Source: Pyrobaculum calidifontis JCM 11548
GTDB taxonomy: Archaea > Thermoproteota > Thermoprotei > Thermoproteales > Thermoproteaceae
Assembly: GCF_000015805.1 (NCBI RefSeq)
Contig: NC_009073.1
Location: forward strand, 660,001-692,000
Direction of reading: 5' to 3'
DNA: 32,000 nt
Below, in pieces: positions 8,919-30,107 of the stretch. Made by a program: the position numbers and the translations under genes. The notes under the pieces were generated by a model. The model was not told the origin of the DNA. It saw only the letters and a program-made list of their open reading frames with translations, and did not search any database. Numbering within the stretch: the stretch's first letter is position 1; each line of letters begins with the position of its first letter.

Positions 8919-8977
8919 ATAGAGCTATGGCTGTTGGGCTTAGGATAGTGGATTTAAGTAGTTGCCCCCGTTGATGC

Positions 8978-11344: not shown

Positions 11345-11415
11345 TCAGCACTCGGCAAATTCCCCACCACTCGGGCGAGGTCACCCAGTCATCACACCCG
11401 ACAACACGCCCAAGT

Positions 11416-12105: not shown

Positions 12106-12145
12106 GGCAAACAAAACTCTTATAAATATATGTGGAGAGGGGGAA

Positions 12146-13153: not shown

Positions 13154-13197
13154 GCCAAAACGGGAAAACAGATATAAAAACACACGCCCCCACCCCC

Positions 13198-14213: not shown

Positions 14214-14498
14214 CTACAAAACAACACGACAAAAATATATACTCAGCAGGCTTACCAACGCCTAAGTGAACCCTATGTATAATTCTACAACGGTTTGGAC
14301 GGAAACCCCTGGAGCTCCCTTTCACCACCTCCCCATTGGTCCAAGACGCCCCTAAAAGACAACTTACCAACTTAAAGGCCCCTACAACCCTAGGCAAGGG
14401 CCTCGTAAGGTCCACGCCCTCCGACGCCTTTGCCAAAAGACAGAGCCTGGACTACTTGCCCTTAAAACGCCGCCTTTCTACGAGTCTTCGGCGCGGCC

Positions 14499-14681
14499 CT
14501 ATTGAGACACCTGCCTCCTCGGCCCCACCCTTAGCACAAACTCTCTGCCCCTCCCCACGTAGTGGTTGAAGAGTCCGCCACAGCGCCTACACCTGTAGTG
14601 GGTGACGCGGTAGCCCATCTTCGGCATCTCCCAGCTCTTAACAGCCTCCACATCCTCAGAGCCACAGTAGGGACACTTCAT
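14499..14681 (-). CDS. Small zinc-ribbon protein (60 aa)
   Basis: Two Cys pairs, CPYCG and CRRCG, are spaced as in a zinc ribbon. A TATA-like ttaaaac box lies about 23 nt upstream. Confidence 0.7.
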   Translation of the reverse strand: MKCPYCGSEDVEAVKSWEMPKMGYRVTHYRCRRCGGLFNHYVGRGREFVLRVGPRRQVSQ

Positions 14682-14754
14682 AGTGACATGATTGTACAGT
14701 GTTTTAATCTTTCTCTACCGCTATAGTTATATATTCACAGTAGCGAGACTGAAT

Positions 14755-15204
14755 ATGTATCTACTGTTCAAGGGCAGACTTGCAAACTTCAGCCACAGCC
14801 TCCTCGACTACCTAGAACGCAGAAGTGCGTTAATAAGGCGGTTTCTGCCCGGCGTCTTCCTCTGGGGCGCCTCTAGGCGAAACTCGTTGTTGCAGGAGGG
14901 GGCCCACGTATTTCTATACGTCGCCAAAGAGGTGGGCTTCCCAGGCGGAGTCGTGTTATACGGCGTCTTGCAAAAGCCGGAGGAGCTGTTGGAAAAGTAT
15001 TGGCCAGAGGGCGAGTGGCCAATCCTCCTGCCCATAAAGGTGGAGAGGCTAGCGCCCGGCGTGGCGGAGAGCCCCCTCGACCCCTCCCGGTGGAGACCAG
15101 TGACGCTGGCCCAGCTCCAGCAGATCGGAGTCCGAGTACTGCCCTCACCAGCGCAGCCGTTGCCCGAGGAAAAGGCCAAGGCCTTGTTGTCCCTCCTGAG
15201 GTAA
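14755..15204 (+). CDS. PUA-like (EVE/ASCH-type) domain protein (149 aa)
   Basis: The ATG at 14755 lies about 25 nt after the tatagttatatatt box. The protein shares the pattern LWG...G.hVFLYVAK...VLYGV...YWPEGEWPILLPIKV with the second EVE-like protein at 26561..27049. Its TAA stop overlaps the ATG of the SNF2 gene. Confidence 0.7.
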   Translation: MYLLFKGRLANFSHSLLDYLERRSALIRRFLPGVFLWGASRRNSLLQEGAHVFLYVAKEVGFPGGVVLYGVLQKPEELLEKYWPEGEWPILLPIKVERLAPGVAESPLDPSRWRPVTLAQLQQIGVRVLPSPAQPLPEEKAKALLSLLR

Positions 15205-17663
15205 TGGCCAGCGCCGTCACACCGACAAAGGTACTGGCGGCGTTTAAACAGGCGGGAAAGGAGCCCTACCTCCACCAGCTAGACTTGGTGTCAGACCTCC
15301 TCCTCTTGCCCAGGTTTAAAGTCCTCTTGGCAGACGACGTGGGGCTCGGCAAGACAATTGAAACCCTTGCCTATGTGAAATTGGGCGTGGAGAGCGGGCG
15401 CTTGGCCAAGGTGCTTATAGTTGTCCCAGCCGCGCTTCTCGACCAGTGGCTAGACGAGCTGAGGAAATTCGGCTTCACAGACGAAGAGGTCTACGTGGCT
15501 AGGGAGGCCGTCTTGGCGCCTGGGAGGCCTATCTACGTGGTGACCATGGACAGAGCAAAGAAGGACGAGTACCTCAAGTTGCTGGAGCAAGTCCCGTGGG
15601 ACTTAGTGGTGATAGACGAGGCTCATAAGCTCCGCCTAGACACACAGCGGCTGAGACTAAAGACGTTGTGCGAGAAGGCCAAGAGCTGTCTGCTACTCAC
15701 CGCAACTCCGCACACTGGCGATGAGAAGAGCTACGCCATCTTGAGGGGCACGGTGGATAAGGTGGTGAGGAGAGAGAAGAGAGACGTAGAAGAGTATGAA
15801 ATGCGGAAAATCTTCCCCAACATACGCTACTACATCGTCAGAGTAAAAGCCACGCAAGAGGAGGCCAAGGCCTTGAGGGAGATAATTAGGCTGTTGGAAG
15901 AGGCGGAGGTAGAGCCAATTGTCAGATACGTGGTCCTTAAACGCGCCTTGTCCAGCCCCCTGTCCCTAATCACGACGTTGAACAAGGTCGTAGGCGGCAC
16001 CTGCACCGAGGAGGACCTGGAAGAGGGCGAGTTAGACGGGTGTCTCTCCCACGTGCAAGACCTCTTGAAAAACGTCAAAGCGTACACCGCCGAGGATAGG
16101 AAGCTCTCTGCGCTGAAGAGGGTTTTAAACGGCCCACTGGCCGGCAGAAAGACTATAGTGTTCACCGAATACGCCACCACGGCCCAGTACCTCTTCCAAG
16201 CGCTGGCGGAGAACTGCGACGCGGAGTGGGGCGAGGGGTTTGGCAAAGCCTACTGCAAGGACGGCGCGGTCATGTACACGACTCACAAGGCGAGGGTGGA
16301 GCTCGGCGACGCGATAAATAGAGAAATCGAGGAGCTGGCCGCCAAGCCCAGGCCAGTGCTAATAACCACGGACATATTCACCGAGGGCGTCAACCTCCAG
16401 ATGTTCGACGCAGTGGTGAACTACGAAGTTGTGTGGAGCCCCACAAAACACGTCCAGCGGATAGGCAGAGTGTGGCGGCTGGGACAGAAGAGCCAAGACG
16501 TGGCCGTGGTAGACATGGCGCTAGACGCGCCCGGGACGAGGAGCGAGTTTGAGATGTACGTCGAGTACTTAGATAAGATCTACCAGATAAACCTCACCGC
16601 GCTCACTCCCCACGCCTACGCCGAGTACGAGATATACGAATTCAAGGGAGAGCTAGAGGAGAAGATCAAAGTCAAGATATCCGACCTCGGAGGGGTCTAC
16701 ATACCCACAAGCGACGCCATAGCCGCCATCTTCGAAAAACGGCTCGAAGAGCTGAGAGAAAAAGTGGAAAAACTGCTACAGCTCAAGGAGGCGCTGAGGG
16801 GTGCCAAGGACCGCGAAAAACTCCTCAAAGACCTAAAGGCCAAGCTGGGCTGGCCGCCGGAGAAGAGCCCAGAGCCCGGCGGTGGGTACTACAAGGCCAA
16901 GCTAGTGGTAGAAGTGGGCGGGCTCCCCGCATTAGAAGAGAACCTACTGGCCAGGCTCGACACGCCGCTAAGTAAGACGAGACAAGTAAAAGGCGATGTG
17001 GTGTACAGAGAGGTGGAGCTAAGCGGCGTAGAGATACAGGGAGAGCCAGGCGAAATAAGGCAGGACGAGAAAAAGAAAATAGAGCAAGCCGCCTTGAAGT
17101 TTTTTGCAGACCACCTTTGGACCTACGCGAAGCAACTCATAGGAGACCCAAGGCTGAGAGACAGCGTTAGGCTGAGAATACAGGTAGAGGAGAGAGCCAT
17201 AGTCACCACAAGCGTCTCTCTAGACGACTTCGACGCCGCGGTGGAAGAGGCCCTGAAGAGGAGTGACTATAGGACAAAGACAGAGCACACCGCGGTTAAG
17301 TGCATAAAGGAGTACCTCGTCAAACAAGGCTACAGGATTGTCCGCGACTATGACAGCGCTCCCCGGCCCTTTGACATGGTCGTAGAAAAAGGCGGAAAGA
17401 GGTACACCGTGGAGTGCAAAGGGCGCTACATACGGCCGGGCGAGGCGCTGTCTGTGACCCTGACGGCAAACGAGATGGACTGGGGCTCCAAGTACCCCGA
17501 CAGGCACCTAATATGCGTAGCCACCGTAGAAGGCACGAGGTGCAACACCGTAGAGTGCTACACCTTTGACCAATTCTTAAAAACGTGGAAAGTGGCCACC
17601 AAGCGGGGTCTCGACTACGTGGTAGAGGCAGTCAAAGAAAGCGTCGATAAAGAGAGGCAATAG
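15204..17663 (+). CDS. SNF2-family helicase/translocase with a C-terminal PD-(D/E)xK (DUF3883-like) nuclease-fold domain (819 aa)
   Basis: Helicase motifs are DDVGLGKT (I), VVIDEAHKL (II), LLLTATPHTG (III) and TEGVNLQ...QRIGRVWRLGQ (V/VI). The C-terminal 130 aa carry PFD...VECKG...LTANEMDW...HLICVA. The real start is the ATG at 15204, not 15000. Confidence 0.9.
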   Translation: MASAVTPTKVLAAFKQAGKEPYLHQLDLVSDLLLLPRFKVLLADDVGLGKTIETLAYVKLGVESGRLAKVLIVVPAALLDQWLDELRKFGFTDEEVYVAREAVLAPGRPIYVVTMDRAKKDEYLKLLEQVPWDLVVIDEAHKLRLDTQRLRLKTLCEKAKSCLLLTATPHTGDEKSYAILRGTVDKVVRREKRDVEEYEMRKIFPNIRYYIVRVKATQEEAKALREIIRLLEEAEVEPIVRYVVLKRALSSPLSLITTLNKVVGGTCTEEDLEEGELDGCLSHVQDLLKNVKAYTAEDRKLSALKRVLNGPLAGRKTIVFTEYATTAQYLFQALAENCDAEWGEGFGKAYCKDGAVMYTTHKARVELGDAINREIEELAAKPRPVLITTDIFTEGVNLQMFDAVVNYEVVWSPTKHVQRIGRVWRLGQKSQDVAVVDMALDAPGTRSEFEMYVEYLDKIYQINLTALTPHAYAEYEIYEFKGELEEKIKVKISDLGGVYIPTSDAIAAIFEKRLEELREKVEKLLQLKEALRGAKDREKLLKDLKAKLGWPPEKSPEPGGGYYKAKLVVEVGGLPALEENLLARLDTPLSKTRQVKGDVVYREVELSGVEIQGEPGEIRQDEKKKIEQAALKFFADHLWTYAKQLIGDPRLRDSVRLRIQVEERAIVTTSVSLDDFDAAVEEALKRSDYRTKTEHTAVKCIKEYLVKQGYRIVRDYDSAPRPFDMVVEKGGKRYTVECKGRYIRPGEALSVTLTANEMDWGSKYPDRHLICVATVEGTRCNTVECYTFDQFLKTWKVATKRGLDYVVEAVKESVDKERQ

Positions 17664-18006
17664 CGGCGCCGAAATCCCTCAAAAAGTCGATCCCCCACTG
17701 GAGAAGCCGGTACTCAAGCACCGATGCAAGCGCCGAAGCCTCAAAAGCCCTCATCATATTCACAATACGCCTAGCCTCCTCCGACCGCAACCCCGCCCTC
17801 CTCAGCGCAATGTACAGTAAGGCCCTTTCGCTGAGGTTGGGGTGCTTGACCTCTAACACGTTGCCCTCCACCCGCCAGTCTACACCCTCGTCAAAGGCTA
17901 TAAACAGCCTAAAAAGCGGCGGAAACTCGCCCAGCTTAACACCGCTCCGAAACTTAAGCCTCCCCAACTCCACTACGGCATACTTAGACAAAAACCTCAC
18001 TCTCAT
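17632..18006 (-). CDS. Hypothetical protein (124 aa) coupled to the upstream ATPase gene
   Basis: Its ATG overlaps the TGA of the 1019-aa gene (ATGA at 18003-18006). Its 3' end overlaps the convergent SNF2 gene by 32 nt. I recognise no motif. Confidence 0.6.
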   Translation of the reverse strand: MRVRFLSKYAVVELGRLKFRSGVKLGEFPPLFRLFIAFDEGVDWRVEGNVLEVKHPNLSERALLYIALRRAGLRSEEARRIVNMMRAFEASALASVLEYRLLQWGIDFLRDFGAAIASLYRRFL

Positions 18007-21000
18007 TCCTCCACAATCTTAGTCCACAGAAGCGCGCCCTTGCCCAAGCTCTCAAGCAGAGACTTATCGACAGTTACAGGCTCCTTAAACTTGACAGTGA
18101 CCCCCACGTTCTGAGTCACCGGCTCCACAGCCTTTATAAGCCGACGAGCCTGCTGCAGATGGCCCCTACGCCCCCTAAACTCCAGCCTGAGATTCAAATC
18201 CTCAGAAGCCTCAATAGCCCTAACTTCGACGACCTCTACAATGTCCTCCTTCAACCTCTCAAGAAGTCGGACAGCCTCAGCCGCAGACGACGCAGACACG
18301 GCCACTACCACGTCGCCCACATTCACCACCGCCGTGGACACCTCGCGCCTCCTTCTCACACGCACATTCAAAACTACGCTCCTCTCCACCACGCTACCAT
18401 CGGCAAACTCTGCAACAATCTTCACCACGTACTGCGGATCCTCCCCAACACGTACTTTAAACTGGAAAAACACGTCGTTAACCGTGGTCTCGTGTTGAAC
18501 GCCTGCAAACTCCCAAATGACGCGGGAAATCTTCTCATCAGACTCCACAGCTATCACAACCTCGTCCCCCGGATTCACCTCAGCCAGAGACGTAACCACA
18601 CCGTTGACTTTGACGTCCAGCCTCTTCTTACGCTTTTCAATGCGGTACTTAGCATGCTTTAGATACATCCAGTCCTCTCTCTCCCTCAAAACGTCTGCGA
18701 GGCTACGCCTCACCTCTTCACCGCCTAGCCTCTGATACGTAAACTCAACAGACCCGCGGCTATCCAAATAGGTAAGAAACTGCTCTACAACAGACTCGTT
18801 GACCGAGCCCTCCACGTAAGCCAGCGCCACCTCGGAATTCCTGGGATCCCTCAGCTCGTAGAAACACCCACCCCCCTCCGAGATCCACTGATACTCGCCC
18901 CCCTCCCTCACCACACAGTTGCAATCCTCTCTACACCTCCTAAGAAGCCCCTCCACAAAGTCGTCAAACGACAACGGGTAAGGCGGCGCATCGTCGTTGT
19001 TAAGCCACTGATCCCACAAGTCGCCAATTTTCACAAAGACTTGCGCCCTCCCAAGCGCCCACTCTATTACAGCCTCGGGCTTGCTACTGCCAAGGTACTT
19101 GGCCAAATACTCCAAGCCCCCAGACGCAGAGATCCGCCTACCCAGGAGGACCTCGTCCAGCCACTTCTCCACATACCTCCTAATGTACGACCTAGCCACC
19201 TCCTTTATACGCTCAAGACGCACCTTCACCCCATCCTCCAGCGCCTGCCTGAGAGCTCTATCCTCCACTTGCACAATGTCGGGAAAGTAGCTCTCCAAGT
19301 CCTCCGCCACTCTGTCAACGGCCACCTTCACCCTGCCCAACATGTACAAAGCCCCAGAAAGCTTATCAGGCGGCACAGCCACCTTGCCCAAAAACTCTTT
19401 CACATCCCCAGGCACAGCCCCCTCCCTCGCCCTTACCACAAACAGGTTGTTACGCCTAGGCACCTGCGCCGTCCCCCTGAGGTCCACCAAAAGCGCCGAG
19501 AAGTCCCGCTCCCCCACGTAGTCGGCGGCCTTCTTTGCATCGTCAAAAGAGGACACCCCCTCAGCCTTCCCCTCCTTCCACCCAAGCACTGCAACGCGCT
19601 TGAACCTCTTAGCCACAGACTTGACGAGTTGCTCCACCTCGTCATGGACAGCCTTAGCCCCCTCCTCCTCTGAGACGTACACCAGGGCCTTTGCCAAAGC
19701 CTCGTACTCGTCTGGAAGAGGCAAATAGACGTAGCCCCCCGCGGTCTTCTGCACCCTAAAATCCCCAAGCCTCCTCACCGCGTTAGACACAGGAAGCGCC
19801 CCAAGAACGACATCGTAGTTACCCAAGATAAGCGCGGCCTCATCTGGGTATATCCCACTCCTAGGCATGAGCCTCCCCACAAAGCTACGGTAAATCACAT
19901 GGCGCAGAACCGAGCGGAGGACAAAGTCGTCGCCCGCCGCCTCCTCATCCTTCCTATACAGACCAAGGATGGAGCTCCAGAACTTGCTAAACTCGGGAGG
20001 CGGCTCCACCACCTCGCCAGGCTCAGGCAGATCCCCATGCACCACAAGCCCCCCACCCCTCTCCACCGCGCTCTTCAAAGCCTTCAAGGCAGACTGCAGA
20101 AGGCCCCTAGTGAGCTGAATTCTAGACGCCTTCACAAGGCTCTCCTCGGCGAGCAGGAGGAGCGTCTCAAGCGCCACAGGGTTGAAGGGATACGTCTCAG
20201 CCACCTTCCCATGAAACTCCTTCACCTTGTCCTCCGGCACCACGCCCACGAGATCCCTAAACTCGCGGTAAGGCGGCACCTTGTCAATCCCAGCCCACCT
20301 CCTCACGATATGCACAATGTTCCTCACAGCATCCATCTCAATAATCAGCGGGTCCACCCTCCTCAGCCTTTCCAAGCTAGGCGGCGAATACTGGCCGCTG
20401 GCCAAGCTATACGACACCACCAACGCCTTGCCCGGCCCAGCCTCCACAAACACCTCAGAGAGAAGCTGCATATAGTCCGCAAACTGTGCGCCAAACCTGT
20501 TGTCAAACATCCCAGCCTCGTCAAAGAGGTAGAGGACAGGACCGCGCCCCACCAACTCCCCCCTCAGCAAATCCTTCGTCGGCACGCCGCTCCCCCAAGG
20601 CGGCGACGAAGCGTAACCACCGTGGAAAAGCACCACCCTCAAATCCCCCTCCAAGTCAGGCAACTCCACATCAATCCCATACCTCTTAAGCTCCTTAACC
20701 ACACACTGCCCAACCCCACGACACTCCCTATAAAGAGCCGCCACGTGAAGCACAAACGCCAAAAAGTGCGACTTCCCAGCCCCCAGGTAGGCGGGAAGCA
20801 CAAAGACGTTCTTCCCAGGCCGCCCAGCCAAAACCCCAAACAACACAGACAGCCACCTAACCATCCCCGCCGTGGGGTACGTCACAGAGAAAAACTCCTC
20901 CCTCGAACAATACACCTCGTGACCTGCGACAGGCCGCCCCCCACCAAACAAACAGTCAAACACCACCTTCACATCAACCGCAGGAGATACACCACCAGAC

Positions 21001-21062
21001 ACAAACCTATCCACAACATCAAGCCGCCTAACAAACTCCCTCAACTGCATAAAGCCAAACAC
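18003..21062 (-). CDS. Large P-loop ATPase, DUF499 / BrxC(PglY)-like (about 1015-1019 aa)
   Basis: The Walker A motif is LPAYLGAGKSHF (about 20766-20786) and the Walker B motif is VLYLFDEAG (about 20517-20534), followed by a very long C-terminal region. An alternative start at ATG 21050 fits the tataaaaaat box (21071-21080) better than the GTG at 21062. Confidence 0.85.
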   Translation of the reverse strand: MFGFMQLREFVRRLDVVDRFVSGGVSPAVDVKVVFDCLFGGGRPVAGHEVYCSREEFFSVTYPTAGMVRWLSVLFGVLAGRPGKNVFVLPAYLGAGKSHFLAFVLHVAALYRECRGVGQCVVKELKRYGIDVELPDLEGDLRVVLFHGGYASSPPWGSGVPTKDLLRGELVGRGPVLYLFDEAGMFDNRFGAQFADYMQLLSEVFVEAGPGKALVVSYSLASGQYSPPSLERLRRVDPLIIEMDAVRNIVHIVRRWAGIDKVPPYREFRDLVGVVPEDKVKEFHGKVAETYPFNPVALETLLLLAEESLVKASRIQLTRGLLQSALKALKSAVERGGGLVVHGDLPEPGEVVEPPPEFSKFWSSILGLYRKDEEAAGDDFVLRSVLRHVIYRSFVGRLMPRSGIYPDEAALILGNYDVVLGALPVSNAVRRLGDFRVQKTAGGYVYLPLPDEYEALAKALVYVSEEEGAKAVHDEVEQLVKSVAKRFKRVAVLGWKEGKAEGVSSFDDAKKAADYVGERDFSALLVDLRGTAQVPRRNNLFVVRAREGAVPGDVKEFLGKVAVPPDKLSGALYMLGRVKVAVDRVAEDLESYFPDIVQVEDRALRQALEDGVKVRLERIKEVARSYIRRYVEKWLDEVLLGRRISASGGLEYLAKYLGSSKPEAVIEWALGRAQVFVKIGDLWDQWLNNDDAPPYPLSFDDFVEGLLRRCREDCNCVVREGGEYQWISEGGGCFYELRDPRNSEVALAYVEGSVNESVVEQFLTYLDSRGSVEFTYQRLGGEEVRRSLADVLREREDWMYLKHAKYRIEKRKKRLDVKVNGVVTSLAEVNPGDEVVIAVESDEKISRVIWEFAGVQHETTVNDVFFQFKVRVGEDPQYVVKIVAEFADGSVVERSVVLNVRVRRRREVSTAVVNVGDVVVAVSASSAAEAVRLLERLKEDIVEVVEVRAIEASEDLNLRLEFRGRRGHLQQARRLIKAVEPVTQNVGVTVKFKEPVTVDKSLLESLGKGALLWTKIVEE

Positions 21063-21158
21063 AAAACCACTATAAAAAATTCAAGACGTAACTAAGAGAG
21101 GAACCCGCCGCTACACGTAGGGCGATGGGATTGGCCCTTGCGACAGCCGCCTCTGGGC

Positions 21159-24002
21159 CTACATGAGGAGGGAGGAGGCGCCTAGAATCGCCTCGGCGGC
21201 CTTGACGTCTGGGTCGTCTTTGCTTAACACCCCCGCGTCGCAGAGTTTTACAAAGGCGCGGCACAGGGCGAGGACCTCCTTAAACACCTCCTCGCCGAAC
21301 TTGGCCTTGATTTGGTCAAACTTGAACGAGGGGCTGAGGGCCCCCGCCTCGGCCTCTCTAAACGCCTCCAACACCTTCGACCTGCCCCGCACCTTTCCCA
21401 GCGCCGACACATACGCTGGCACAGACGCCTCGGCCGGCGCCACCACCCTAAAAGACTTACGCTTAGCCACATTCGCGCCGCCGGACTCCACGGGCTCCAA
21501 AAGCCCCGCCTTAACCATGTCGCCGTCTGACAGCCCAGTGGCGTACTGCACATACGCGACTGTGTCGCTGTCAACCACGCCGCGCTCCGACGCGGTGCGG
21601 AGCAGGAGATACGCCAGGGCGTAGGGGTCCCGCACCTCCACTCCCAAAAACCGCAGAGCCCCCTCGAACCCAATCGAGGTGGCGGCCCCCAACACCGACT
21701 CGACGTCCAGGACGGCGCCGGCGTACCTCACCTCCTTAAACCTCAAAAGGGCAGAGAGCCCAGCAACATAGGCGTAGACAAAGAAGTCATGCGAAAACGC
21801 CCTGTACTTCTCAAACTCCTTTGCCACAAGCTCCACCACCTTGGCCCTCTGTGCGGGGTCCGCCAAGTCCACTATCCCCTCCCCATCCACTGCCTCCCGC
21901 CTCCTCCACGCCGCCACGAACCCCCCAAGCACCGACGCCTTGCCCCTCGCCACCACGCTCTCCTCGCTCTCAGTAGCCACAGGATACGCCGCGGTCAGCA
22001 CAAGGCCGCTGCGCCTCCAAAGCGCGTCCACCAGCGCCACCCACGCCTCCGGCTTCTTGGCCACGTAGTACACCACGAGGAGGCCCTCCGGCTTGAGGAA
22101 GCGGAGGATGTTGGAGAAGGCCCTGGCGAGGAGGTCGGCGAAGCCCTCCCTCATCTTAAAGTACTCGAAGCGCCCCTCGTTCTCCGACACCTCCCTCGGC
22201 GCAAAGAACTGCCACTGCGTAGTGACCTCCTCCCCAAACTCGTCGAAAAAGGCCTCGGGCAAAAACCTCGGCACGAGGCGACCGCCATCAACGCCGCTGA
22301 GAGCCCGCTTAAGCCACACGTAGTAGAAGTCGCTAAGCTCCGCATAGGGCACGTCGTCGGCGTAGGGCGGATCAGTGAGAACGACGTCAAACACCTCGCC
22401 CTCCAACTTGCTAAGCGAGGCTGCGTCGTCAAGCAAAACCCTAACCCCACCAGGGCTACCAGAGACCGCGGAGACAAGATAAGACAAGCTCTCAATAACA
22501 GTGTTGACGCTCCGGACGTAGGTACCCGTCCACATTGTCCACGGCGACATGTCGTCCCAATTCCACATCATAGCAATACCTCTCATAGAAAGAGAGTGGC
22601 CCATTATCAACGATCGATTCCACCCAGCTACAATTGAGCTATAATCAACGTATTTGCATAATGCTACCGCTAAATACGTCGTTACCGCTTCTGCGTATTT
22701 GTGGGCGTCTTCTCTGCCCCATCCCTCTCCCAGCTTCTCCTCCTCGGCCAGCCTGCCCGCCTCGCGTATAAGCTTCACCAGCTTGAGCAAAGCAAGAAGC
22801 TGACGCGGGTTGAAGAGCTTAAACCATTCGTCAAAGCCATAGAGAATGGGGAAGAGGTACCTGTTGCTATAAGGCGATACAGGCTCTGTCGGTATGTCTG
22901 GGTCTCCCCACATCTCCCTAAGCTTTTCCGCGGCTTTCCACAGCTTTTCCACGTCTTGGCCGTCTGCTGGCTCGAAGCGTAGGTCTCTGCCCTCCGCCCT
23001 CACCTTGACGAGTAGCGTCGGCCTGGCGGGGCTTCCCCTGAGCTCCTCCAGCGTCGTCTCGCCTCTTAGGTAGCGCTCGTATCTCTCGTTCCACTGGCGG
23101 AGGGCCCACTTGACGTACCAGTCGCCGACTTTCTTCTTGGCGCTCGGCTTCACAATCTTCCCGTCGACGGCGCGGTGGTTTATCTCTGCGCCGCAGTGGA
23201 GGCAACGCGCCGTCTCCCGCCTCGCGTCTATGTTCTTGGCGGGCACTCTGTACTCCCTCCCCCCGGCCTTAACCACGCCGCCCTCCCCCTCCTCGCCCCT
23301 AGCCTTAACCTCAGCCCTAACGCGGCCAAGGTCCACTACCCTCACGCCGTTGTTCCACTCCATCCAGGCCAGCCTCTCGTACTCACTGCCCTTCTTTACC
23401 CTTGCCAGCCACCAGTTCCCCACCAGCGGCGTGTGGCGGCCGCAGGCGGGGCACTTCACCTCCCACGTCCCAATGTAAACAGCGGCGTCGCCGTAAAGCC
23501 CCTTGACGTCGGGGTCCTCCCTCAGCCTCTCCACGACCCACCTCCCCCACTTCTCCACCTCCTTGGCCAAGTCAATCCTCCTCTCGGCGGCCCACTTGGG
23601 GTACTCAAGGACGGCCTTGAGGAAGACGTAGGCCGTGGGGAGTAGCTCTACGGCCGTGGCGTCTAGGCCAAGGCGGAGCGCCTCAAGGGGGATAGAGCCG
23701 AAGCCGGCGAAGGGGTCCAACAGCTTCTTCCCCCTTAGCCTCTCTACTAGGCGGGGAGATGGGTTGCACGTGTGTACCGTCTTTCGCTCGCCTCTGCAGG
23801 GGAAGAGGTGTGTGAGGAATTGTTGTGGGTTTATGTCGTCTAGGAGTGCGGCGGCTATTATCGCCCTGGCGCCGGCGAGGGGCTTTCGGGTCCACCAGAA
23901 CACCATCTCCCAGTGGGGCGGCCTGCCGGGCCCCTTCTCCACTTTTGAAAGTTCGTTGATCTCGTCGATGGGGAGCCCCCTCTCCAGGAGGGTCACGTAC
24001 AC
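21159..24002 (-). CDS. DNA methyltransferase with Zn-ribbon insertion (DUF1156 / COG1743-like, N6-adenine or N4-cytosine class), 947 aa
   Basis: The N-terminus carries FWWTRKPLAGARA (DUF1156-like WWxRxP). Motif I is LLDPFAGFGSIP (about 23697-23717). Cys pairs CPACG and CLHCG form the ribbon. Motif IV is VLTDPPYADD (about 22362-22373). Confidence 0.9.
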   Translation of the reverse strand: MYVTLLERGLPIDEINELSKVEKGPGRPPHWEMVFWWTRKPLAGARAIIAAALLDDINPQQFLTHLFPCRGERKTVHTCNPSPRLVERLRGKKLLDPFAGFGSIPLEALRLGLDATAVELLPTAYVFLKAVLEYPKWAAERRIDLAKEVEKWGRWVVERLREDPDVKGLYGDAAVYIGTWEVKCPACGRHTPLVGNWWLARVKKGSEYERLAWMEWNNGVRVVDLGRVRAEVKARGEEGEGGVVKAGGREYRVPAKNIDARRETARCLHCGAEINHRAVDGKIVKPSAKKKVGDWYVKWALRQWNERYERYLRGETTLEELRGSPARPTLLVKVRAEGRDLRFEPADGQDVEKLWKAAEKLREMWGDPDIPTEPVSPYSNRYLFPILYGFDEWFKLFNPRQLLALLKLVKLIREAGRLAEEEKLGEGWGREDAHKYAEAVTTYLAVALCKYVDYSSIVAGWNRSLIMGHSLSMRGIAMMWNWDDMSPWTMWTGTYVRSVNTVIESLSYLVSAVSGSPGGVRVLLDDAASLSKLEGEVFDVVLTDPPYADDVPYAELSDFYYVWLKRALSGVDGGRLVPRFLPEAFFDEFGEEVTTQWQFFAPREVSENEGRFEYFKMREGFADLLARAFSNILRFLKPEGLLVVYYVAKKPEAWVALVDALWRRSGLVLTAAYPVATESEESVVARGKASVLGGFVAAWRRREAVDGEGIVDLADPAQRAKVVELVAKEFEKYRAFSHDFFVYAYVAGLSALLRFKEVRYAGAVLDVESVLGAATSIGFEGALRFLGVEVRDPYALAYLLLRTASERGVVDSDTVAYVQYATGLSDGDMVKAGLLEPVESGGANVAKRKSFRVVAPAEASVPAYVSALGKVRGRSKVLEAFREAEAGALSPSFKFDQIKAKFGEEVFKEVLALCRAFVKLCDAGVLSKDDPDVKAAEAILGASSLLM

Positions 24003-24198
24003 ACTACAGCCCCTTCTTTAAAGCATGTACATGCGATATAGATAATATGGCGCCTGAATCGTCTTTAATAGCGTTAGATGTGCACATTGTGGTACTTAAG
24101 AATGTAGTTGAGCTTTGGGTCTAGGTCTATATTAAGTATGCAGATGTGTCTACTTTGTTTTTAAACATGCATTTATAAATGTGGGCTGAGCAAGGGCC
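24003..24198. promoter_or_regulatory. AT-rich divergent control region with three palindromes
   Basis: This region lies between the methylase start (24002, minus) and the 264-aa gene start (24199, plus). It contains ctttaaag near the methylase start, gcatgtacatgc (24023-24034), atgtgcacat (24078-24087), and catttataaatg (24170-24181, a TATA-containing palindrome 18-29 nt before 24199). Confidence 0.45.
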
Positions 24199-24993
24199 GT
24201 GGGGTCGCTGGTTAAGGTGGTTGTGTTTCCTCAGGCGGAGGCTAGGTATAGGGTTGTGGATGAGTTGAAGAGACGTGCAGGGGAGGAACTTGTCTACAAT
24301 AGGATCGTCACAGTTATTCCTAGGAGCGATGTTGAGTCTGTGACTTATGACGATAGAGAGGGCCATTTTGAGAGGGGCATTAAGCTCGTGATTCCGCTTA
24401 AGCTGAAGGTCTCAAGGGGAGACGTGCCTCTGCGGGGCTCTGAGGTGTTGGGTGAGGACTATTTTAGGCTTGAGGTGGAGGTTCCTGAGGAGGTGGTGAC
24501 TCTTAGGGGGGAGTGGAGGGTGAAGAGGAAGGTGACGTGTAGCTTCTTCTACTATGTGGATAGGGATTTGGAAGATGTTGCTGTATTGACTTCCGCAGAG
24601 GGCGTTAAGGCGATTAATGGGGCTGTGGAAGCGCTTAGAATGCTCCACATCTATGTGCCTGATACTAGGCTTGAGCTTCCGAGGGGTCAGAAGTTTAGGG
24701 AGATGTTGAGCAGGCTGGGGGAGCTCGGGTGGATTTCTATCTCTGAGATCCAGGACGTGAGCATTAGGTTCGCTATTGTGAGTGGGAGGTGGCTTGAGAG
24801 GCATCCTGTTGTGTCTGACTTGTCTGAGCGGGGGCAGGTCACGGCCCTGGTCATAAATAAGGAGGGCTTGAGGCTTATACTGAGTGTGAGGGGCATCTAC
24901 GTTCAGCAGCGCCTTGCGGAGGTCGCCGTGGCGGAGCGGGTGGCTGAGGTGGTGAAGGTGTTGAAGGAATTCGGCGTGTTTAAACCCGGTTGA
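24199..24993 (+). CDS. Hypothetical protein (264 aa)
   Basis: Clean ORF with a GTG start and protein-like composition. I recognise no motif. Confidence 0.6.
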   Translation: MGSLVKVVVFPQAEARYRVVDELKRRAGEELVYNRIVTVIPRSDVESVTYDDREGHFERGIKLVIPLKLKVSRGDVPLRGSEVLGEDYFRLEVEVPEEVVTLRGEWRVKRKVTCSFFYYVDRDLEDVAVLTSAEGVKAINGAVEALRMLHIYVPDTRLELPRGQKFREMLSRLGELGWISISEIQDVSIRFAIVSGRWLERHPVVSDLSERGQVTALVINKEGLRLILSVRGIYVQQRLAEVAVAERVAEVVKVLKEFGVFKPG

Positions 24994-25648
24994 GTATTTC
25001 GGCGTATATCTCCTCCATATTTGCTATGGACGGCGGTAGGTCTACCACGACCGTGGTTTTGTGTGTATACACCTTTAGGTCGAGTTGTCTCTTTGCCAGG
25101 TAGTCCTGTATCTTTGCCGCGGCTTTTTGTGCGTTATTCTGGTCTAGGTAGTAGACCTCTATTCTACCGGCCCAGCTCATTGCCCCAAGCTCGCTGTATG
25201 TCAATTTGACGAATTCGCGGATTGCCGCCGCCACGTCCTCGCTCTTCGCTCCCAGCGGCACTAGGAGGAGGGTGACGTCGGTTGAGTGGTCCCTCTCCAC
25301 CTCTGGCGCCTCCACCTCTATGCCGAAGGCCTCTCTGAGGAGCTCGCTGTCGGGTATGGTGTCTTGGGAGGTGTACCATGTGGCTAATATGTACCCACGG
25401 CCGCTCTTGTACAGACACGGGAGTATCTTCTCGTCTTTGCATACATAGAGCCTCATCAGCGTGCTGTCTATGTGCTTAGTCGCGGTGGAGCTTCTGAAGA
25501 ACGCCGTTATGTAGATTTGCACAAGCTTCTTGGCCTTCTTTATCTCTGTCTCTAGGTATTCCCTAATTTGCGGCGCTACGTCGAGACCGAGCTTGACTAG
25601 CGATATCACGCTCCTTATCAGCTCGACTGTGGCGGTGGCCTCTGTCAC
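24980..25648 (-). CDS. Hypothetical protein (222 aa)
   Basis: The ORF has a GTG start, with its own AT-rich box (ttatttaag, 25668-25676) in the 29-bp gap after the MazG-like gene. Its 3' end overlaps the convergent 264-aa gene by 14 nt. Confidence 0.6.
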   Translation of the reverse strand: MTEATATVELIRSVISLVKLGLDVAPQIREYLETEIKKAKKLVQIYITAFFRSSTATKHIDSTLMRLYVCKDEKILPCLYKSGRGYILATWYTSQDTIPDSELLREAFGIEVEAPEVERDHSTDVTLLLVPLGAKSEDVAAAIREFVKLTYSELGAMSWAGRIEVYYLDQNNAQKAAAKIQDYLAKRQLDLKVYTHKTTVVVDLPPSIANMEEIYAEILNRV

Positions 25649-25677
25649 GTTATTTAATTGCTGTGGTTATTTAAGTT

Positions 25678-26034
25678 TTAGAACCTCTTCATGTTTTCTT
25701 CCAGTTTTTTGAAGTATGCCTGTTCTAGGTCTATGCCGAGGAAGCTGGCCATGGTTAGGACGTAGATGAAGACGTCTGTCAGTTCCTCCTCTATCTTTGG
25801 CAGAGCCTCTTGAAGCGTGAGGCCTTTCCCTCCGTATACGGTGGCGCGGACTACCTTTTTGACGACGTTGGCGAGCTCTCCCACCTCGCCGGCGAGGGCG
25901 TTGGTGAAGTACTCAAGCCGCAGGGCGGCGTCTCGGTCGCCTTCTACGCGCCAGAAGTGTGGGAACTTCTCTCCGGAGAACTGGGCCTGTATCTTGGCGA
26001 GCTCTCTCAGCTCCACTTCCGCCCCCGCGCGCAT
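25678..26034 (-). CDS. MazG-like all-alpha nucleoside triphosphate pyrophosphohydrolase (118 aa)
   Basis: The metal-binding motifs LAGEVGELANVVKK and IEEELTDVFIYVL are followed by LGIDLEQAYFKKLEENMKRF. This is the canonical small MazG/type-2 dUTPase-like pattern. Confidence 0.85.
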   Translation of the reverse strand: MRAGAEVELRELAKIQAQFSGEKFPHFWRVEGDRDAALRLEYFTNALAGEVGELANVVKKVVRATVYGGKGLTLQEALPKIEEELTDVFIYVLTMASFLGIDLEQAYFKKLEENMKRF

Positions 26035-26036
26035 GT

Positions 26037-26558
26037 TTATATCTCCGGCATTTTACATGCAGATATTTTCGCAAGTAAGGCCGGCATCACCTCTCTATAG
26101 AGGAGGGCTGGCACTACGTAGACGTCGCGGCCGAGCTCCGCCTCTCTGAGGTCGTATTCTCTAAGCATTTTCCTATATTCCGCGTTCATCGATCTAAGCG
26201 CTTTTCTGATCCTTCTGGGAACGTTTGTCATTATTACTAGGTAGCGCGTTCGCCCTGACTTTGGCATCTTTTCTAGCTTTTTTACCAGTTTTTCTATGTA
26301 TTTCTTGCCACCTACTTCGTGCCCTACCTCAGATTCTATGACCACTTCTATGTCGCCGTAGGTTAAAACTACGTCTACTCCTTCTTCGCTACCTGGGCTT
26401 ATCTTCTCTATTTCAAAGCCTAGGGCCCTTGCGATTGCTATTATGTCTATGAGAGAGTAGTCGTGTAGCGTCTCTGCGGCATTATCTACGAATTTCCTGA
26501 GAGATACCCTTTCAGGTTTGCGCTCTTGCGAATCTTGGTCTTGTCTCGGCTTCGGCAT
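26037..26558 (-). CDS. Hypothetical protein (173 aa), possibly restriction-endonuclease-like fold
   Basis: The middle gene of a tight operon, with 2-nt gaps on both sides. The segment ALGFEIEKISPGSEEGVDVVLTYGDIEVVIESEVG resembles the E...D...ExK core of Mrr/PD-(D/E)xK proteins, but it has E-S-E in place of ExK. Confidence 0.6.
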   Translation of the reverse strand: MPKPRQDQDSQERKPERVSLRKFVDNAAETLHDYSLIDIIAIARALGFEIEKISPGSEEGVDVVLTYGDIEVVIESEVGHEVGGKKYIEKLVKKLEKMPKSGRTRYLVIMTNVPRRIRKALRSMNAEYRKMLREYDLREAELGRDVYVVPALLYREVMPALLAKISACKMPEI

Positions 26559-26560
26559 GT

Positions 26561-27049
26561 CTAGGCTATTTTAACGTAGATGCCCATTGATTTCAGTTTT
26601 TCTCTGAGTTTCTCTAGCACGGTCTCTGCCTCGTGGGGTGGGGCCTCGCCTATCCCGTAGCCGTCTACGTAGTTTTCCAAGTGCGTGAAGTAGGCGCCTA
26701 GGGGCTCCTCGGAGTATATGATGATGTAGAAGGAGACGCGCCATGGGAATAAGACCTTGCCCTTGTTGACTTCCTCTGGCCAGACGGGCGTCTGGTCGTC
26801 GTAGAATCTATCCTTCGCTATGCCTACGGCGTGTATGTCGCCGCTTTTGGCGAGTTGGAAAAATACCACGTCGCCAGCCGAGAGGTTGTTGTAGAGGTGG
26901 AGGAATTGCCGCCAGTTTTTTGCAAGTGTTGACTTTTTCCTGCTTGACTTACTGTCGTGCGGCTTTTTCCAAAAGCCCCAGAGGAGCCTCTCGCTGGCGG
27001 TTTTTATGTTCTCTTTGTTCTTGGAGGCGAATACCCAGTACTTGCCCAT
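26561..27049 (-). CDS. EVE/PUA-like domain protein (162 aa)
   Basis: The pattern KYWVFASKN...LLWGFWKK...GDVVFFQLAKSGDIHAVGIAKDRFYDD...VLFPWRVSF is EVE-type. A tttttatc box lies about 27 nt upstream on the minus strand. Confidence 0.7.
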   Translation of the reverse strand: MGKYWVFASKNKENIKTASERLLWGFWKKPHDSKSSRKKSTLAKNWRQFLHLYNNLSAGDVVFFQLAKSGDIHAVGIAKDRFYDDQTPVWPEEVNKGKVLFPWRVSFYIIIYSEEPLGAYFTHLENYVDGYGIGEAPPHEAETVLEKLREKLKSMGIYVKIA

Positions 27050-27092
27050 GTTGCCTAGAAAGCGTGCTGATAAAAATTCGTGTTTATTCGTT

Positions 27093-27512
27093 TTACTGGG
27101 TTTGGCTTGTCATTTGTTTGTGTGTTTCCATCATGCAGGTGTCTTCGATTAGGGTGATGCCTTCTTGTTCTAGTTGTTGTTTTACTTCGGGGGGTGCTCT
27201 TATGCCTAGTTGTAGCCATAGTACTTTGACGTCTCCTCTTTCCCTCTTGCGTTTGATTACTTCCTGTGCTATTTTGGGGACTTCTTCGCTTGGTCTGAAG
27301 ACGTTTACTACCTCTATCTCGTGTGGTATTTCTAGGATGTTTGGGTAGGCTTTTTCGCCGAGGATTTCGGTGGCTGTGGGGTTTACGGGTATGATTTTGT
27401 AGCCGTGTTCTTTGAGGTATTTTGGCACTATGTGGGCCCACTTGGTGGGGTCTTTTGAGGCGCCGACTACGGCGACTGTGCGGTGGCGTTTGAGGACTTC
27501 TTGTGGGTTCAT
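27093..27512 (-). CDS. CoA-binding domain protein (YccU/YneT-like)
   Basis: The pattern RTVAVVGASKDPTKWAHIVPKYLKEHGYKIIPVNP and the ~140 aa size match the family. Confidence 0.85.
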   Translation of the reverse strand: MNPQEVLKRHRTVAVVGASKDPTKWAHIVPKYLKEHGYKIIPVNPTATEILGEKAYPNILEIPHEIEVVNVFRPSEEVPKIAQEVIKRKRERGDVKVLWLQLGIRAPPEVKQQLEQEGITLIEDTCMMETHKQMTSQTQ

Positions 27513-27513
27513 G

Positions 27514-27687
27514 TCAGTGGTGGTGTGGCATTCCTTGTGGGCCGTGGGTGAGGTAGTATTCTGGGTTTTTTTCGAAGGCTTCTTTGCACATGGGTGAGCA
27601 GAAGTAGTAGGGCTTGCCTTTGTAGAGGGTTTTCCACTTGGCCGTGGCTGGGTCTACTTCCATTCCGCATACTGGGTCTTTGACCAT
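27514..27687 (-). CDS. TRASH/YHS-domain metal (copper) binding protein, 57 aa; absent from the supplied ORF track
   Basis: My own translation is MVKDPVCGMEVDPATAKWKTLYKGKPYYFCSPMCKEAFEKNPEYYLTHGPQGMPHHH. The DPVCGM...YYFCS..C..F signature defines TRASH/YHS, and there is a His-rich tail. It is divergent from copA, and its stop lies 1 nt from the next ATG (TGAcATG). Confidence 0.8.
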   Translation of the reverse strand: MVKDPVCGMEVDPATAKWKTLYKGKPYYFCSPMCKEAFEKNPEYYLTHGPQGMPHHH

Positions 27688-27728
27688 GTACCCACCGCGG
27701 CTGGCATATATATTTATTTGGGGGCATC
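27688..27728. promoter_or_regulatory. Divergent promoter between the TRASH gene and copA (catatatatttattt)
   Basis: The only AT-rich stretch (27705-27719) lies in the 41-bp gap between two divergent metal-related genes. Confidence 0.5.
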
Positions 27729-30107
27729 GTGCTGGGTGTGGAGGTGAAGGTTGGGGTTAGGGTTGGGGGGCGTAGTGCCGTGGTTAAGGTTTTGGGGATG
27801 CACTGTGCCACTTGTTCTCTCACTGTGCAGAGGGCTCTTCTCTCTGTGCGGGGGGTGAGGTGGGCTGAGGCTTCTCTTGCCAGTGGCGAGGCTAGGCTTG
27901 TGGTTGATCCCGAGGTGTTGGATTGGGGGGAGTTGCTGAGGGCTGTGCGGGGGGTGGGGTACGACGTGTATAGGGAGTCTGCTCACATAGTGGCGGACTT
28001 CCGCCCGGAGGAGGTGGAGGCTGTGGAGAGGGCGGCGGGGGGCTGGGGGGTTTTCTATGTGCGGGCGAGCCCGGCGGCTGGGGTGGTGTATGTGGAGTAT
28101 AACCCTCTTGAGACGTCTGTGGAGGAGGTGGCGGAGAGGGTGGCTAGGGCTGGTTTTAGGGTGAGGGAGGTGAGGAGGGGGGAGGTGGGGGTGGACGTGG
28201 ATAGGAGGGCTGTGGAGGCGGAGGTGAGGGATTTGGGGAAGAGGCTTGTCCCGGCGGCGGTCGCGGCGGCGGTGTTGATGTTGGCCATGGTGGGGGTCCT
28301 GCATGTTCCTCCGTTGGCGCAGTTGGCGTTGGCTGGCGTGGCGCAGTTCTACTCTGGGTGGAGGTTTCTCTGGGGGGCGGCGCGGGCTTTTAGGAATGGG
28401 ACGGCGAATATGGACACGTTGGTGGCGTTGGGGACCCTTTCCACTTTCCTCTACAGCTCCTATGCCGTGGCTGTGGGGGGCCACGCCTTTTTTGAGGCGT
28501 CGGCGGCGGTTATCGCCTTTGTGTTGGCGGGGAGGTACGTGGAGGCTCTCATGAGGCTTAGGACTGGGGAGGCTGTGAAGAGGCTGGCGCAGCTTCAGCC
28601 GCCGAGGGCCAGGGTGAAGAGGGGGGAGGGCTGGGTGGAGGTGGAGGCGTCTGGGGTTGGGGCTGGGGAGTTGGTGGAGGTGCGGGAGGGGGAGCGGGTG
28701 CCGGTGGACGGCTACGTGGAGGAGGGGGTTGGGCTGGTGGACGAGTCTGCCTTTACTGGGGAGCCTCTCCCCGTGGAGAAGGGGCGGGGCGACTTGGTGC
28801 TGGCTGGCACGGCGCTGGTGAGGGGGAGGCTGGTGGTTAGGGCCACTAGGTCTGGGAGGCACACCTACCTTGCCGAGGTGGTTAAGCTTGTGAGGCAGGC
28901 GCAGAACGCGCGGCTGCCTATTCAGAGGCTTGTGGATAGGGTGGCTGGTGTATTCACCTGGGTGGTCATCGGCGTTGCGGTCGCCACCTTTGTGGGGTGG
29001 AGCGCCGTGGGGGCGCCGCTTTCGCAGGCCCTCTTGTTCACTGCGTCTGTCCTCGTGGTGGCTTGTCCCTGCGCCTTGGGCCTCGCCACGCCTCTGGCGG
29101 TGGTGGTGGGGGTGGGGAGGGCGGCGGAGAGGGGGCTCTTGATTAAGAACGTGGAGGCTGTGGAGAAGGCTCTTAGGGCTAGGTACGTGGCGTTTGACAA
29201 AACTGGCACGTTGACGGTGGGCGCCCCCAGGGTGGCCAAGTTTGTGGGGGACGGGGAGGCCTTGGCGTTGGCGGCCTCAGCCGAGGCTAAGTCTACGCAT
29301 CCGTTGGGCAAGGCGTTGGTGGAGTACGCGGTGGAGAGGGGGGTCCGCCTGGCGGAGCCGGAGTTCTTTGACACTTTCCCGGGGCAGGGGGTCTACGCCA
29401 GGGTGGACGGGGCCGTGGTGGGCGTGGGGAATGAGAAGCTGGTGGAGGGGCTTGGCGCGTCTATCCCCGAGGATCTGCGGAGGGCGGCGGAGGAGCTGAG
29501 GGGGGAGGGGTACACGGTGGCGTACGTGGTTGTGGACGGCGTGGTGAGGGGGGTGGTTGCGGTGGGGGACGAGGTGAGGAGGGAGGCGGCCGAGGTGGTG
29601 AAGAGGCTGAGGGCCATGGGGCTGGAGCCGGTGGTGGTGTCGGGGGACCACGAGGCGGCGGTGGCCAAGGTAGCCGCGAGGCTGGGCATTGAGAGGTTCT
29701 ACGGCGGCGCCGACCCCGCGGCCAAGGCCGAGGTGGTGAGGAGGCTGAAGAGGGAGGGGGGCGTCATCTTCATCGGCGATGGGGTAAACGACGCCCCTGC
29801 GCTGGCCGAGGCGGACGTGGGAATTGCGGTGGCCTCGGGGACCGAGGTGGCTAAGGAGGCTGGGGACGTGGTGGTGAGGAGGGGGGACTTGGCCAAGGTG
29901 GTGGAGTTCCTCGAGCTGTCTAGGAAGATCGTGGGCACGGCCCGCTTCAACCTCTTCTGGGCCTTTTTCTACAACGTAGTGCTTATACCTGTGGCGGCTG
30001 GGGCCTTCTACCCCGCGTTGTACCTCCGCCCGGAGTACGCCGGGTTGGCCATGGCGCTGAGTAGCATCTCAGTCACGTTGAACGCCCTGAGGCTTAGAAG
30101 GGCGTAG
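27729..30107 (+). CDS. copA: Copper-translocating P1B-type ATPase
   Basis: The N-terminal HMA domain carries GMHCATC. The TM CPC motif is ACPCALGLATP, the phosphorylation site is FDKTGTLT, and the hinge is GDGVNDAPAL. The exact GTG start is uncertain. Confidence 0.93.
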   Translation: MLGVEVKVGVRVGGRSAVVKVLGMHCATCSLTVQRALLSVRGVRWAEASLASGEARLVVDPEVLDWGELLRAVRGVGYDVYRESAHIVADFRPEEVEAVERAAGGWGVFYVRASPAAGVVYVEYNPLETSVEEVAERVARAGFRVREVRRGEVGVDVDRRAVEAEVRDLGKRLVPAAVAAAVLMLAMVGVLHVPPLAQLALAGVAQFYSGWRFLWGAARAFRNGTANMDTLVALGTLSTFLYSSYAVAVGGHAFFEASAAVIAFVLAGRYVEALMRLRTGEAVKRLAQLQPPRARVKRGEGWVEVEASGVGAGELVEVREGERVPVDGYVEEGVGLVDESAFTGEPLPVEKGRGDLVLAGTALVRGRLVVRATRSGRHTYLAEVVKLVRQAQNARLPIQRLVDRVAGVFTWVVIGVAVATFVGWSAVGAPLSQALLFTASVLVVACPCALGLATPLAVVVGVGRAAERGLLIKNVEAVEKALRARYVAFDKTGTLTVGAPRVAKFVGDGEALALAASAEAKSTHPLGKALVEYAVERGVRLAEPEFFDTFPGQGVYARVDGAVVGVGNEKLVEGLGASIPEDLRRAAEELRGEGYTVAYVVVDGVVRGVVAVGDEVRREAAEVVKRLRAMGLEPVVVSGDHEAAVAKVAARLGIERFYGGADPAAKAEVVRRLKREGGVIFIGDGVNDAPALAEADVGIAVASGTEVAKEAGDVVVRRGDLAKVVEFLELSRKIVGTARFNLFWAFFYNVVLIPVAAGAFYPALYLRPEYAGLAMALSSISVTLNALRLRRA

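Follow-up and report, generated by a model that had tools for sequence, protein, structure and literature searches.

A candidate split type IV-like reader-nuclease gene pair beside a resident MazG gene, at the edge of a Pyrobaculum calidifontis defence island

Type IV restriction is known from single-chain enzymes in which a reader of the PUA family is fused to a nuclease, as in the EVE-PD(D/E)xK proteins and in the EVE-HNH enzyme VcaM4I (PMC7641849, PMC7897488). Stand-alone archaeal EVE proteins have also been found beside a COG1743-DUF499-SWI2/SNF2-nuclease system and beside type I restriction-modification (R-M) genes (Bell, Wolf & Koonin 2020; PMC7641849), and the Hma or type-1 BREX-related (BR) systems have been revisited (NAR 2026), with stand-alone restriction endonucleases (REases) as common auxiliary effectors (PMC12839542). 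Considered here is a 32,000-nucleotide (nt) stretch of Pyrobaculum calidifontis JCM 11548 (contig NC_009073.1, positions 660,001 to 692,000; 'the window', its coordinates counted from the first letter), and within it three close-set minus-strand genes, g1, g2 and g3, for a PUA-like putative modified-base reader, a small PD-(D/E)xK-like protein and a MazG-type nucleoside triphosphate (NTP) pyrophosphohydrolase. The reading favoured, which we believe and doubt in about equal measure, is that g1 and g2 belong together as a unit of two genes and make up a type IV-like reader and nuclease in split form. Both were inserted between FHA and MazG, which are core genes, on the margin of a defence-island hot spot.

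With the single-chain type IV enzymes the pair has in common a PUA-like pocket for modified bases and a nuclease fold of the metal-dependent kind, predicted in g1 and g2 respectively, and VcaM4I is among the best structural matches of g1. It differs from them in that the putative reader and nuclease are on separate polypeptides, and in that g2 belongs to a rare family with neither a Pfam nor a PADLOC model and has D...E-S-E instead of D...ExK. The likeness to the set of Bell et al. (PMC7641849) is that g1 is stand-alone, PUA/EVE-like, archaeal and beside this same three-gene system, with relatives in type I R-M operons; however, g1 is on the methylase side and separated from the system by g2, the core MazG gene and here also g4 and g5, in one strain (L032) g1 has no such system next to it, and g1 misses the Pfam EVE model. 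As in the Hma/BR systems, a helicase-REase, a DUF1156 protein and a DUF499 protein are all encoded at 15.2-24.0 kb, but the DUF499 protein of the window is very divergent, matching in its N-terminal part only, and the system is a neighbour of g1-g2. The house-cleaning all-alpha NTP pyrophosphohydrolases (MazG family; DCTPP1/RS21-C6) share with g3 the Pfam match and the metal residues, at low identity to DCTPP1.

A sequence-only reading had put the three genes forward as a candidate nucleotide-centred defence module. The three minus-strand open reading frames (ORFs) are there as it described them (27049-26561, 162 amino acids (aa); 26558-26037, 173 aa; 26034-25678, 118 aa), the peptides that it quoted (GDVVFF...IHAVG...FPWRVSF, IESEVGH and EVGEL...EEELTDV) are all found in the translations, and the defence setting is borne out, the neighbourhood being a defence island. 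The unity of the three genes fares otherwise: the triad is found only in P. calidifontis-like strains (L002, L005, L032, L033, L075 and L076, at 78-96% identity and from hot-spring metagenomes; the numbers L001-L076 denote the related contigs or loci compared with the window), MazG is found by itself at the syntenic position, and g1-g2-g3 as one conserved system is not supported. Orthologs of MazG at 63-68% identity are stand-alone in other Pyrobaculum lineages (L006-L012). Beside g1, both g2 and MazG are absent in all 16 distant g1 loci, and the g1 family and MazG are likewise absent in the roughly 40 distant g2 loci; g2 and MazG are both lacking next to a 72%-identical g1 (L003/L004), as are g1 and MazG next to a 50%-identical g2 (L001). 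A metagenome scan for g2, with an alignment of 11 sequences as query, gave 43 loci, with g1 and MazG present only in two close relatives; two further contigs with members of the family (L030, L031) are too short to hold neighbouring genes. No PADLOC model is matched by g1, g2 or g3.

Gene order tells how the three came to lie together. Window genes 6220-13494 are collinear with a contig from a different Pyrobaculum species (L006) at 68-91% protein identity, and the next collinear gene there is MazG, at 67% identity and in the same relative orientation. The core order in other Pyrobaculum lineages is rSAM-VitK2-FHA-MazG, as in L006, or ThiBP-MazG, and that of L076 is rSAM-VitK2-FHA-[143-aa membrane protein, g1, g2]-MazG; comparison of L006 with L076 thus makes g1-g2 an insertion between FHA and MazG. 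On the other side of MazG the informative strain is L032, which carries g1-g2-MazG with no island beside it: within about 40 nt of its MazG stop comes sequence 94% identical to window 14304-14170, an empty site, and since L032 joins MazG to this match the 11.4 kb of 14305-25676 are a separate strain-variable insertion. In this slot downstream of MazG the cargo differs between strains; that of L002, L033 and L075 includes, among other genes, an AbiL-like ATPase with DUF3226. It was synteny with relatives that exposed MazG as a resident gene caught between two insertions, and the main practical value of the analysis lies in a negative lesson: genes set close together, with domains that seem to fit one another, had given a false three-gene system.

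That g3 is MazG-like was called correctly (PF03819, E 2.1e-7, 31.5 bits against a 22-bit cut-off); its metal-binding residues E-x2-E ... E-x2-D are intact (EVGEL and EELTD in translation) and among solved structures DCTPP1 comes nearest to it (E 4e-6 over 76 residues, low identity). Its start needs amending. The sequence-only reading had both intergenic gaps at 2 nt: the g1-g2 gap stands and is kept in L002 and L005, whereas the g2-g3 gap falls, the ATG at 26034 being ACG in L002 and L005. Most close relatives and stand-alone MazG orthologs are 110-112 aa long and start at the position of GTG 26016 (two members of the MazG cluster are 118 aa, as in the window), and with the conserved start at this GTG, not at the ATG, the real g2-g3 spacing is most likely 20 nt. 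The supposed single AT-rich box is in fact three promoter-like boxes, one each for g1 (ATG), g3 (GTG) and the next gene (GTG at 25648); all-A/T heptamers are scarce in the window, at 0.4% of its positions, each of these three starts has them at about -27 to -20, and g2 has none at about that distance. These boxes were read from sequence only; a bacterial sigma-70/terminator scan of the window was uninformative, the host being archaeal. The TATA-like heptamer ATATAAA, at -26 to -20 before the conserved GTG, is kept in L002 and L005, and in L006, L009 and L010, where MazG stands alone, the TATA box is at the same distance within 1-2 nt; the heptamer is probably MazG's own promoter. The ratio of non-synonymous to synonymous divergence (dN/dS; here and below against L005 and L002) is 0.07-0.09 for g3, which is strong constraint, and the GC content of its third codon positions (GC3) is 0.73. 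From gene order and sequence g3 appears to be a resident, vertically inherited house-cleaning NTP pyrophosphohydrolase that lies outside the inserted module.

The guess that g1 is of EVE type finds support in its fold, which is PUA-like. The AlphaFold (AF2) model has a predicted local distance difference test score (pLDDT) of 89.6, and Foldseek against the PDB gave 93 matches at E <= 1e-3, the best 50 of these 93 being to MJECL36/UPF0310 (7.7e-7), YTH domains and the EVE-HNH enzyme VcaM4I (3.4e-6), with template-modelling (TM) scores of 0.40-0.57. The Pfam EVE model (PF01878) is without a match in g1 at E <= 1, NCBIfam PRK00809 reaches 21.9 bits, far under its 139-bit cut-off, and a profile of 39 g1 homologs run against PDB sequences returned nothing meaningful and no solved structure. 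There is an indirect link to EVE through a 292-aa protein of L039, which the g1 profile finds by hhalign (92% probability, E 6e-7) and which itself matches PF01878 (35 bits against a 23-bit cut-off) as well as PH1033 and MJECL36 in the PDB; the name of g1 at NCBI and UniProt is 'EVE domain-containing'. Residues W24, W46, W90, W103, Y127 and Y131 are invariant across the 39 family sequences, dN/dS is 0.09-0.17 and GC3 0.72. By its modelled structure g1 is PUA-like, between EVE and YTH, an ambiguity that is typical of archaeal members (PMC7641849).

A scan of 185,579 species genomes placed relatives of g1 at 16 distant loci in unrelated, scattered phyla. Directly downstream lies hsdR in eight of the 16, five of which have the full hsdM-hsdS-g1-hsdR order; DUF499 and BrxL are near the relative in L027 and a DUF1156 methylase is near that in L003, its gene beginning about 3.9 kb downstream of the 72%-identical stand-alone homolog. 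A few loci have non-defence neighbours (CDC48/AAA, cysteine desulfurase), and one homolog is annotated 'predicted RNA-binding protein' by JGI. The viral contig collection held relatives of neither g1 nor g2. A few kb from the g1 homolog in L003 there are also a Cas12f1/TnpB-like gene and an AAA_5/VWA pair (3545-4900).

For g2, identical (100%) to ABO08149.1, the earlier guess of a nuclease-like protein is backed by weak restriction-endonuclease-fold matches in Foldseek: searched with the AF2 model (pLDDT 79) they are the small subunit of R.BspD6I (1.6e-3 and TM 0.41, the best), Hje/Hjc, SfsA and the DdmD nuclease, all of them weak. In family alignments E29/H32/D33, D62 and E75-S-E77-G-H are near-invariant, and in the model D62 stands before predicted strand 2 with E75/E77 at the end of strand 3, where the restriction-endonuclease fold has its D and ExK residues; the nuclease assignment is probable. 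Residues 1-28 of g2 are an extension seen only in the clade that has g1 upstream. The family is tiny: clustering at 90% identity gives 14 clusters, and 1.84 billion clusters contain 27 representatives, all of them short and stand-alone. Neither Pfam, NCBIfam, PHROGs nor PADLOC has a model for it, and it diverges to 24-40% identity with its putative catalytic residues still near-invariant. Its sub-threshold Pfam matches are weak, to Mrr_cat in 3 of 20 members and to AHJR-like and MTES_1575 (MTES REase) in one member each. A match of the designed protein OR280 to the g2 profile was set aside, as it looks like a low-complexity artefact. For g2 itself dN/dS is 0.33-0.44 and GC3 0.50; in L076 (4428-4934) the gene is split over three reading frames by three frameshifts, with g1, MazG, g4 and g5 intact, and is probably a pseudogene there, not a product of sequencing error.

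The company that g2 relatives keep is varied. They come after PglX-type methylases, with or without BrxL (L038, L050, L055, L059), and after a DISARM-like helicase/MZB/PLD set with DrmA, DrmB and PLD genes (L043; PLD also in L060 and L068), and the one in L063 has an SNF2-NOV_C helicase-nuclease nearby. Next after the g2 relative of L039 (35% identity) comes an EVE protein other than g1, which makes an independent pairing of a reader with g2; with the g1 profile, hhalign did not match the small genes that adjoin g2 relatives in L055, L038 and L061. The proteins adjoining g2 relatives in L039 (6575-7453) and L063 (4633-5559) have a common C-terminal domain (29% identity, E 3e-15), for which hhalign with the g2 profile is not significant, though D...VVEVH(V/L) lines up with D...ESEVGH. 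The 308-aa L063 neighbour, with an EVE-like 'DYLLFYHS' motif at its N-terminus, was not counted as a third EVE-g2 pairing because only the C-terminal domain is common to it and the L039 EVE protein. At least six g2-family loci (L038, L043, L055, L057, L059, L074) come from one enrichment metagenome, Ga0080004, the project also behind the Methanodesulfokora washburnensis contig L027, and several of them stand at the 3' end of differing defence operons (BREX-like, DISARM-like).

How might such a pair work? The TTTTTAT box before g1, a probable promoter, would give a leaderless transcript of g1-g2, with g2 probably co-transcribed and translated from the same mRNA. The PUA-like domain of g1 would bind a flipped-out modified base in foreign nucleic acid, and g2, with its predicted PD-(D/E)xK fold and putative D...E-x-E metal site, would cut the nucleic acid that g1 had marked, the two together making a split modification-dependent (type IV-like) restriction module. 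If g1-g2 does work so, reader and minimal nuclease need not be fused for modification-dependent restriction but can each be free-standing, and there would be a handle on the base modifications carried by crenarchaeal viruses. The type IV role is suggested by the reader-plus-nuclease gene pair and its defence-island context, both read from sequence.

Are g1 and g2 partners or neighbours? For a unit speak the conserved 2-nt spacing between them, the lack of a promoter-like box at the right distance before g2 and the second, independent reader-g2 pairing of L039. Against it, the fold assignment of g2 is weak even at its best Foldseek match (E 1.6e-3, TM 0.41), Pfam Mrr_cat (PF04471) gives g2 an E of 0.15 (12.6 bits, below the 21-bit cut-off), a g2 profile search of PDB sequences found nothing meaningful, and the canonical D...(D/E)-x-K motif is missing from g2, the Lys position being held by E77, a Glu near-invariant family-wide. 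BamHI has a comparable D/E/E metal site, so that g2 may still be active. Also to be counted against a unit, relatives of g1 and g2 are never adjacent beyond the P. calidifontis group, and the sole other reader-g2 pairing, that of L039, involves a different EVE protein. The relaxation of g2, its GC3 against that of g1 (0.50 and 0.72) and its decay in one strain mean that the pair may lack joint selection. Binding, complex formation, cleavage and the promoters are moreover what we infer, and with most g1 relatives inside type I R-M operons an accessory-subunit role for g1 fits at least as well.

Such a role is the heart of the main alternative, in which g1 is an accessory modified-base sensor of neighbouring methylation-based systems, as Bell et al. 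2020 (PMC7641849) proposed for stand-alone EVE proteins, and g2 an unrelated small 'backup' nuclease, of a sort that collects next to BREX-like loci, the two being neighbours and not partners; we hold it to be somewhat unlikely, though a possibility of some weight. That g1 directly precedes hsdR, with or without hsdS on its other side, in half of the 16 distant loci suits it, as do the DUF499/BrxL genes (L027) and DUF1156 methylase (L003) near g1 relatives, the published COG1743-DUF499-SNF2-nuclease-EVE association and the BREX-related system that lies within 0.3-7 kb in the window, L005, L075 and L076; L032, however, has g1-g2-MazG and no island beside. For g2 as a backup nuclease, the PglX, DISARM and helicase-nuclease genes adjoining its relatives where g1 is lacking, the description of stand-alone REases as auxiliary effectors of BREX and BREX-related systems, and the difference from g1 in GC3 and constraint are all in keeping, but the window helicase already has a nuclease domain, the 2-nt coupling is conserved with g2 lacking a box of its own, and the g2 relative of L039 is paired with an EVE protein other than g1.

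The original proposal, in which g1, g2 and g3 are one nucleotide-centred module and MazG clears modified dNTPs from degraded viral DNA so as to spare the host genome, is now improbable, having been largely refuted by synteny. It can still point to genes that are contiguous and co-oriented in every long-enough P. calidifontis-like contig with g1 or g2, to their similar synonymous divergence (dS 0.22-0.24 against L002), to read-through from g1-g2 into g3 being possible across the 20-nt gap, and to DCTPP1 as the nearest solved relative of g3; DCTPP1 clears 5-modified dCTP. Yet the same syntenic slot holds the stand-alone 63-68%-identical MazG orthologs in lineages without g1/g2, the TATA-like box of g3 is at its ancestral distance while the ATG that would give a 2-nt gap is not conserved, MazG is at none of the 16 distant g1 loci or some 40 distant g2 loci, g3 is intact where g2 is frameshifted in L076, and PADLOC has no model that the three proteins match. 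Could there be no defence role at all, g1 being a housekeeping UPF0310-type RNA-binding protein and g2 a decaying mobile-element remnant? This has the slenderest prospects. While the nearest solved and curated relatives of g1 are UPF0310 proteins of uncharacterised function, one homolog has the JGI RNA-binding label, and a few have CDC48/AAA or cysteine desulfurase neighbours, a housekeeping gene sits badly with relatives at only 16 loci of 185,579 species genomes, in unrelated phyla, half of these loci being inside type I R-M operons; and though g2 has relaxed constraint, favours A/T in its third codon positions and is broken as a pseudogene in L076, its putative catalytic residues are near-invariant at 24-40% identity and its dN/dS is below 0.5.

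There is also a more ambitious joint proposal, unlikely as a whole, in which the g2 family is a new auxiliary nuclease class and the adjoining MazG has been recruited secondarily. The family (ETLHD ... GPD ... ESE(V/I)GH) would then be an undescribed class of small nucleases that plugs into PUA/EVE readers (Pyrobaculum, L039), BREX PglX, DISARM PLD and helicase-nuclease loci of hot-spring archaea; g1-g2 would be the first two-polypeptide, NTPase-free type IV restriction system, and a DCTPP1-like MazG would destroy modified dNTPs from degraded viral DNA, keeping the mark recognized by g1 off the host genome. Irrespective of MazG, the g2 family is a candidate auxiliary defence effector, as it turns up repeatedly where BREX, DISARM and helicase-nuclease loci end.

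The Hma/BREX-related system downstream of MazG is separate strain-variable cargo; its genes and those around it are given in Table 1.

Table 1. Coordinates of the features of the window discussed in the text
Feature	Coordinates	Strand	Accession or basis
g1: PUA-like (UPF0310/EVE/YTH-like) putative modified-base reader, stand-alone, 162 aa	26561..27049	-	ABO08150.1 / A3MU33
TATA-like box TTTTTAT, about -27 to -21 from g1 ATG	27070..27078	-	sequence read
g2: small PD-(D/E)xK-like protein, D62...E75-S-E77-x-G-H, 173 aa	26037..26558	-	ABO08149.1 / A3MU32
TATA-like box ATATAAA, -26 to -20 from g3 GTG, overlaps g2 stop codon	26036..26042	-	
g3: MazG-type NTP pyrophosphohydrolase, 112 aa from GTG	25678..26016	-	ABO08148.1 / A3MU31
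g4: 222 aa, no family match, own TATA-like box ~25667-25674, strain-variable	24980..25648	-	
g5: 264 aa, no family match, strain-variable, convergent with g4 (14-nt overlap)	24199..24993	+	
DUF1156 (COG1743) N6-adenine-type DNA methyltransferase, BREX-related/Hma system	21159..24002	-	
DUF499-like (HmaC-like) ATPase, divergent	18003..21062	-	
SNF2 helicase with C-terminal PD-(D/E)xK nuclease motif, HmaA/DrmD-like	15204..17663	+	
Strain-variable insertion: helicase, 124-aa ORF, DUF499, methylase, g5, g4	14305..25676	.	L032 comparison

The SNF2 helicase-REase, DUF1156 and DUF499 genes that characterize Hma or type-1 BREX-related systems are found together there, the DUF499 match being weak. The methylase matches Pfam DUF1156 (1.9e-10) and the PADLOC models MTase_II (3.5e-202) and HmaB (6e-53), the ATPase matches NCBIfam DUF499_antiphage (3.6e-6, N-terminal part only) and PADLOC HmaC (6.4e-5), and the helicase has Pfam SNF2-rel_dom and Helicase_C and PADLOC DrmD and HmaA matches, with a C-terminal nuclease motif, FDMVV...VECKG, that looks active as read in translation. 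The idea that g2 is the split-off nuclease of this helicase was dropped, the helicase having its own C-terminal D...ExK and the 27 g2 representatives being stand-alone. The helicase ORF opens with a TTG at 15000, its first 68 codons are proline/alanine-rich and look non-coding, and a 170-aa ORF in another frame (14692-15204) overlaps this upstream stretch; from the sequence the start is likely the ATG at 15204. A 124-aa ORF without a family match (17632-18006) overlaps the 3' end of the DUF499-like gene by 4 nt and the convergent 3' end of the helicase by about 30 nt, and may be an uncharacterised small component of the Hma-like system. There are no tRNA genes in the window.

Between the methylase and MazG, g4 and g5 match no family and no solved structure, PADLOC, PHROGs and NCBIfam giving nothing useful for them or for g1 and g2. 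The first is present in L002, L033, L075 and L076 and absent in L005 and L032, the second present in L076 and absent in L005; their presence is independent of the triad, and the dS of g4 against L002 (0.53) is higher than that of g1-g3. Where other cargo fills the slot, the ATPase is of AAA_15/AAA_21 type (L002 2516-4256, L075 1591-3331; PADLOC AbiLi, PDC-M38A) with its DUF3226 partner (PDC-M38B), and after these come an N6_N4 methylase, an AAA_19 protein and a PDDEXK_1 protein. On the far side of g1, window 27093-30107 (CoA-binding, YHS-domain and CopA-type ATPase genes) is cut short or absent in L005 and L076, g1 there being closer to the 143-aa membrane protein that corresponds to window 30097-30465, and on sequence comparison this stretch looks like another strain-specific indel.

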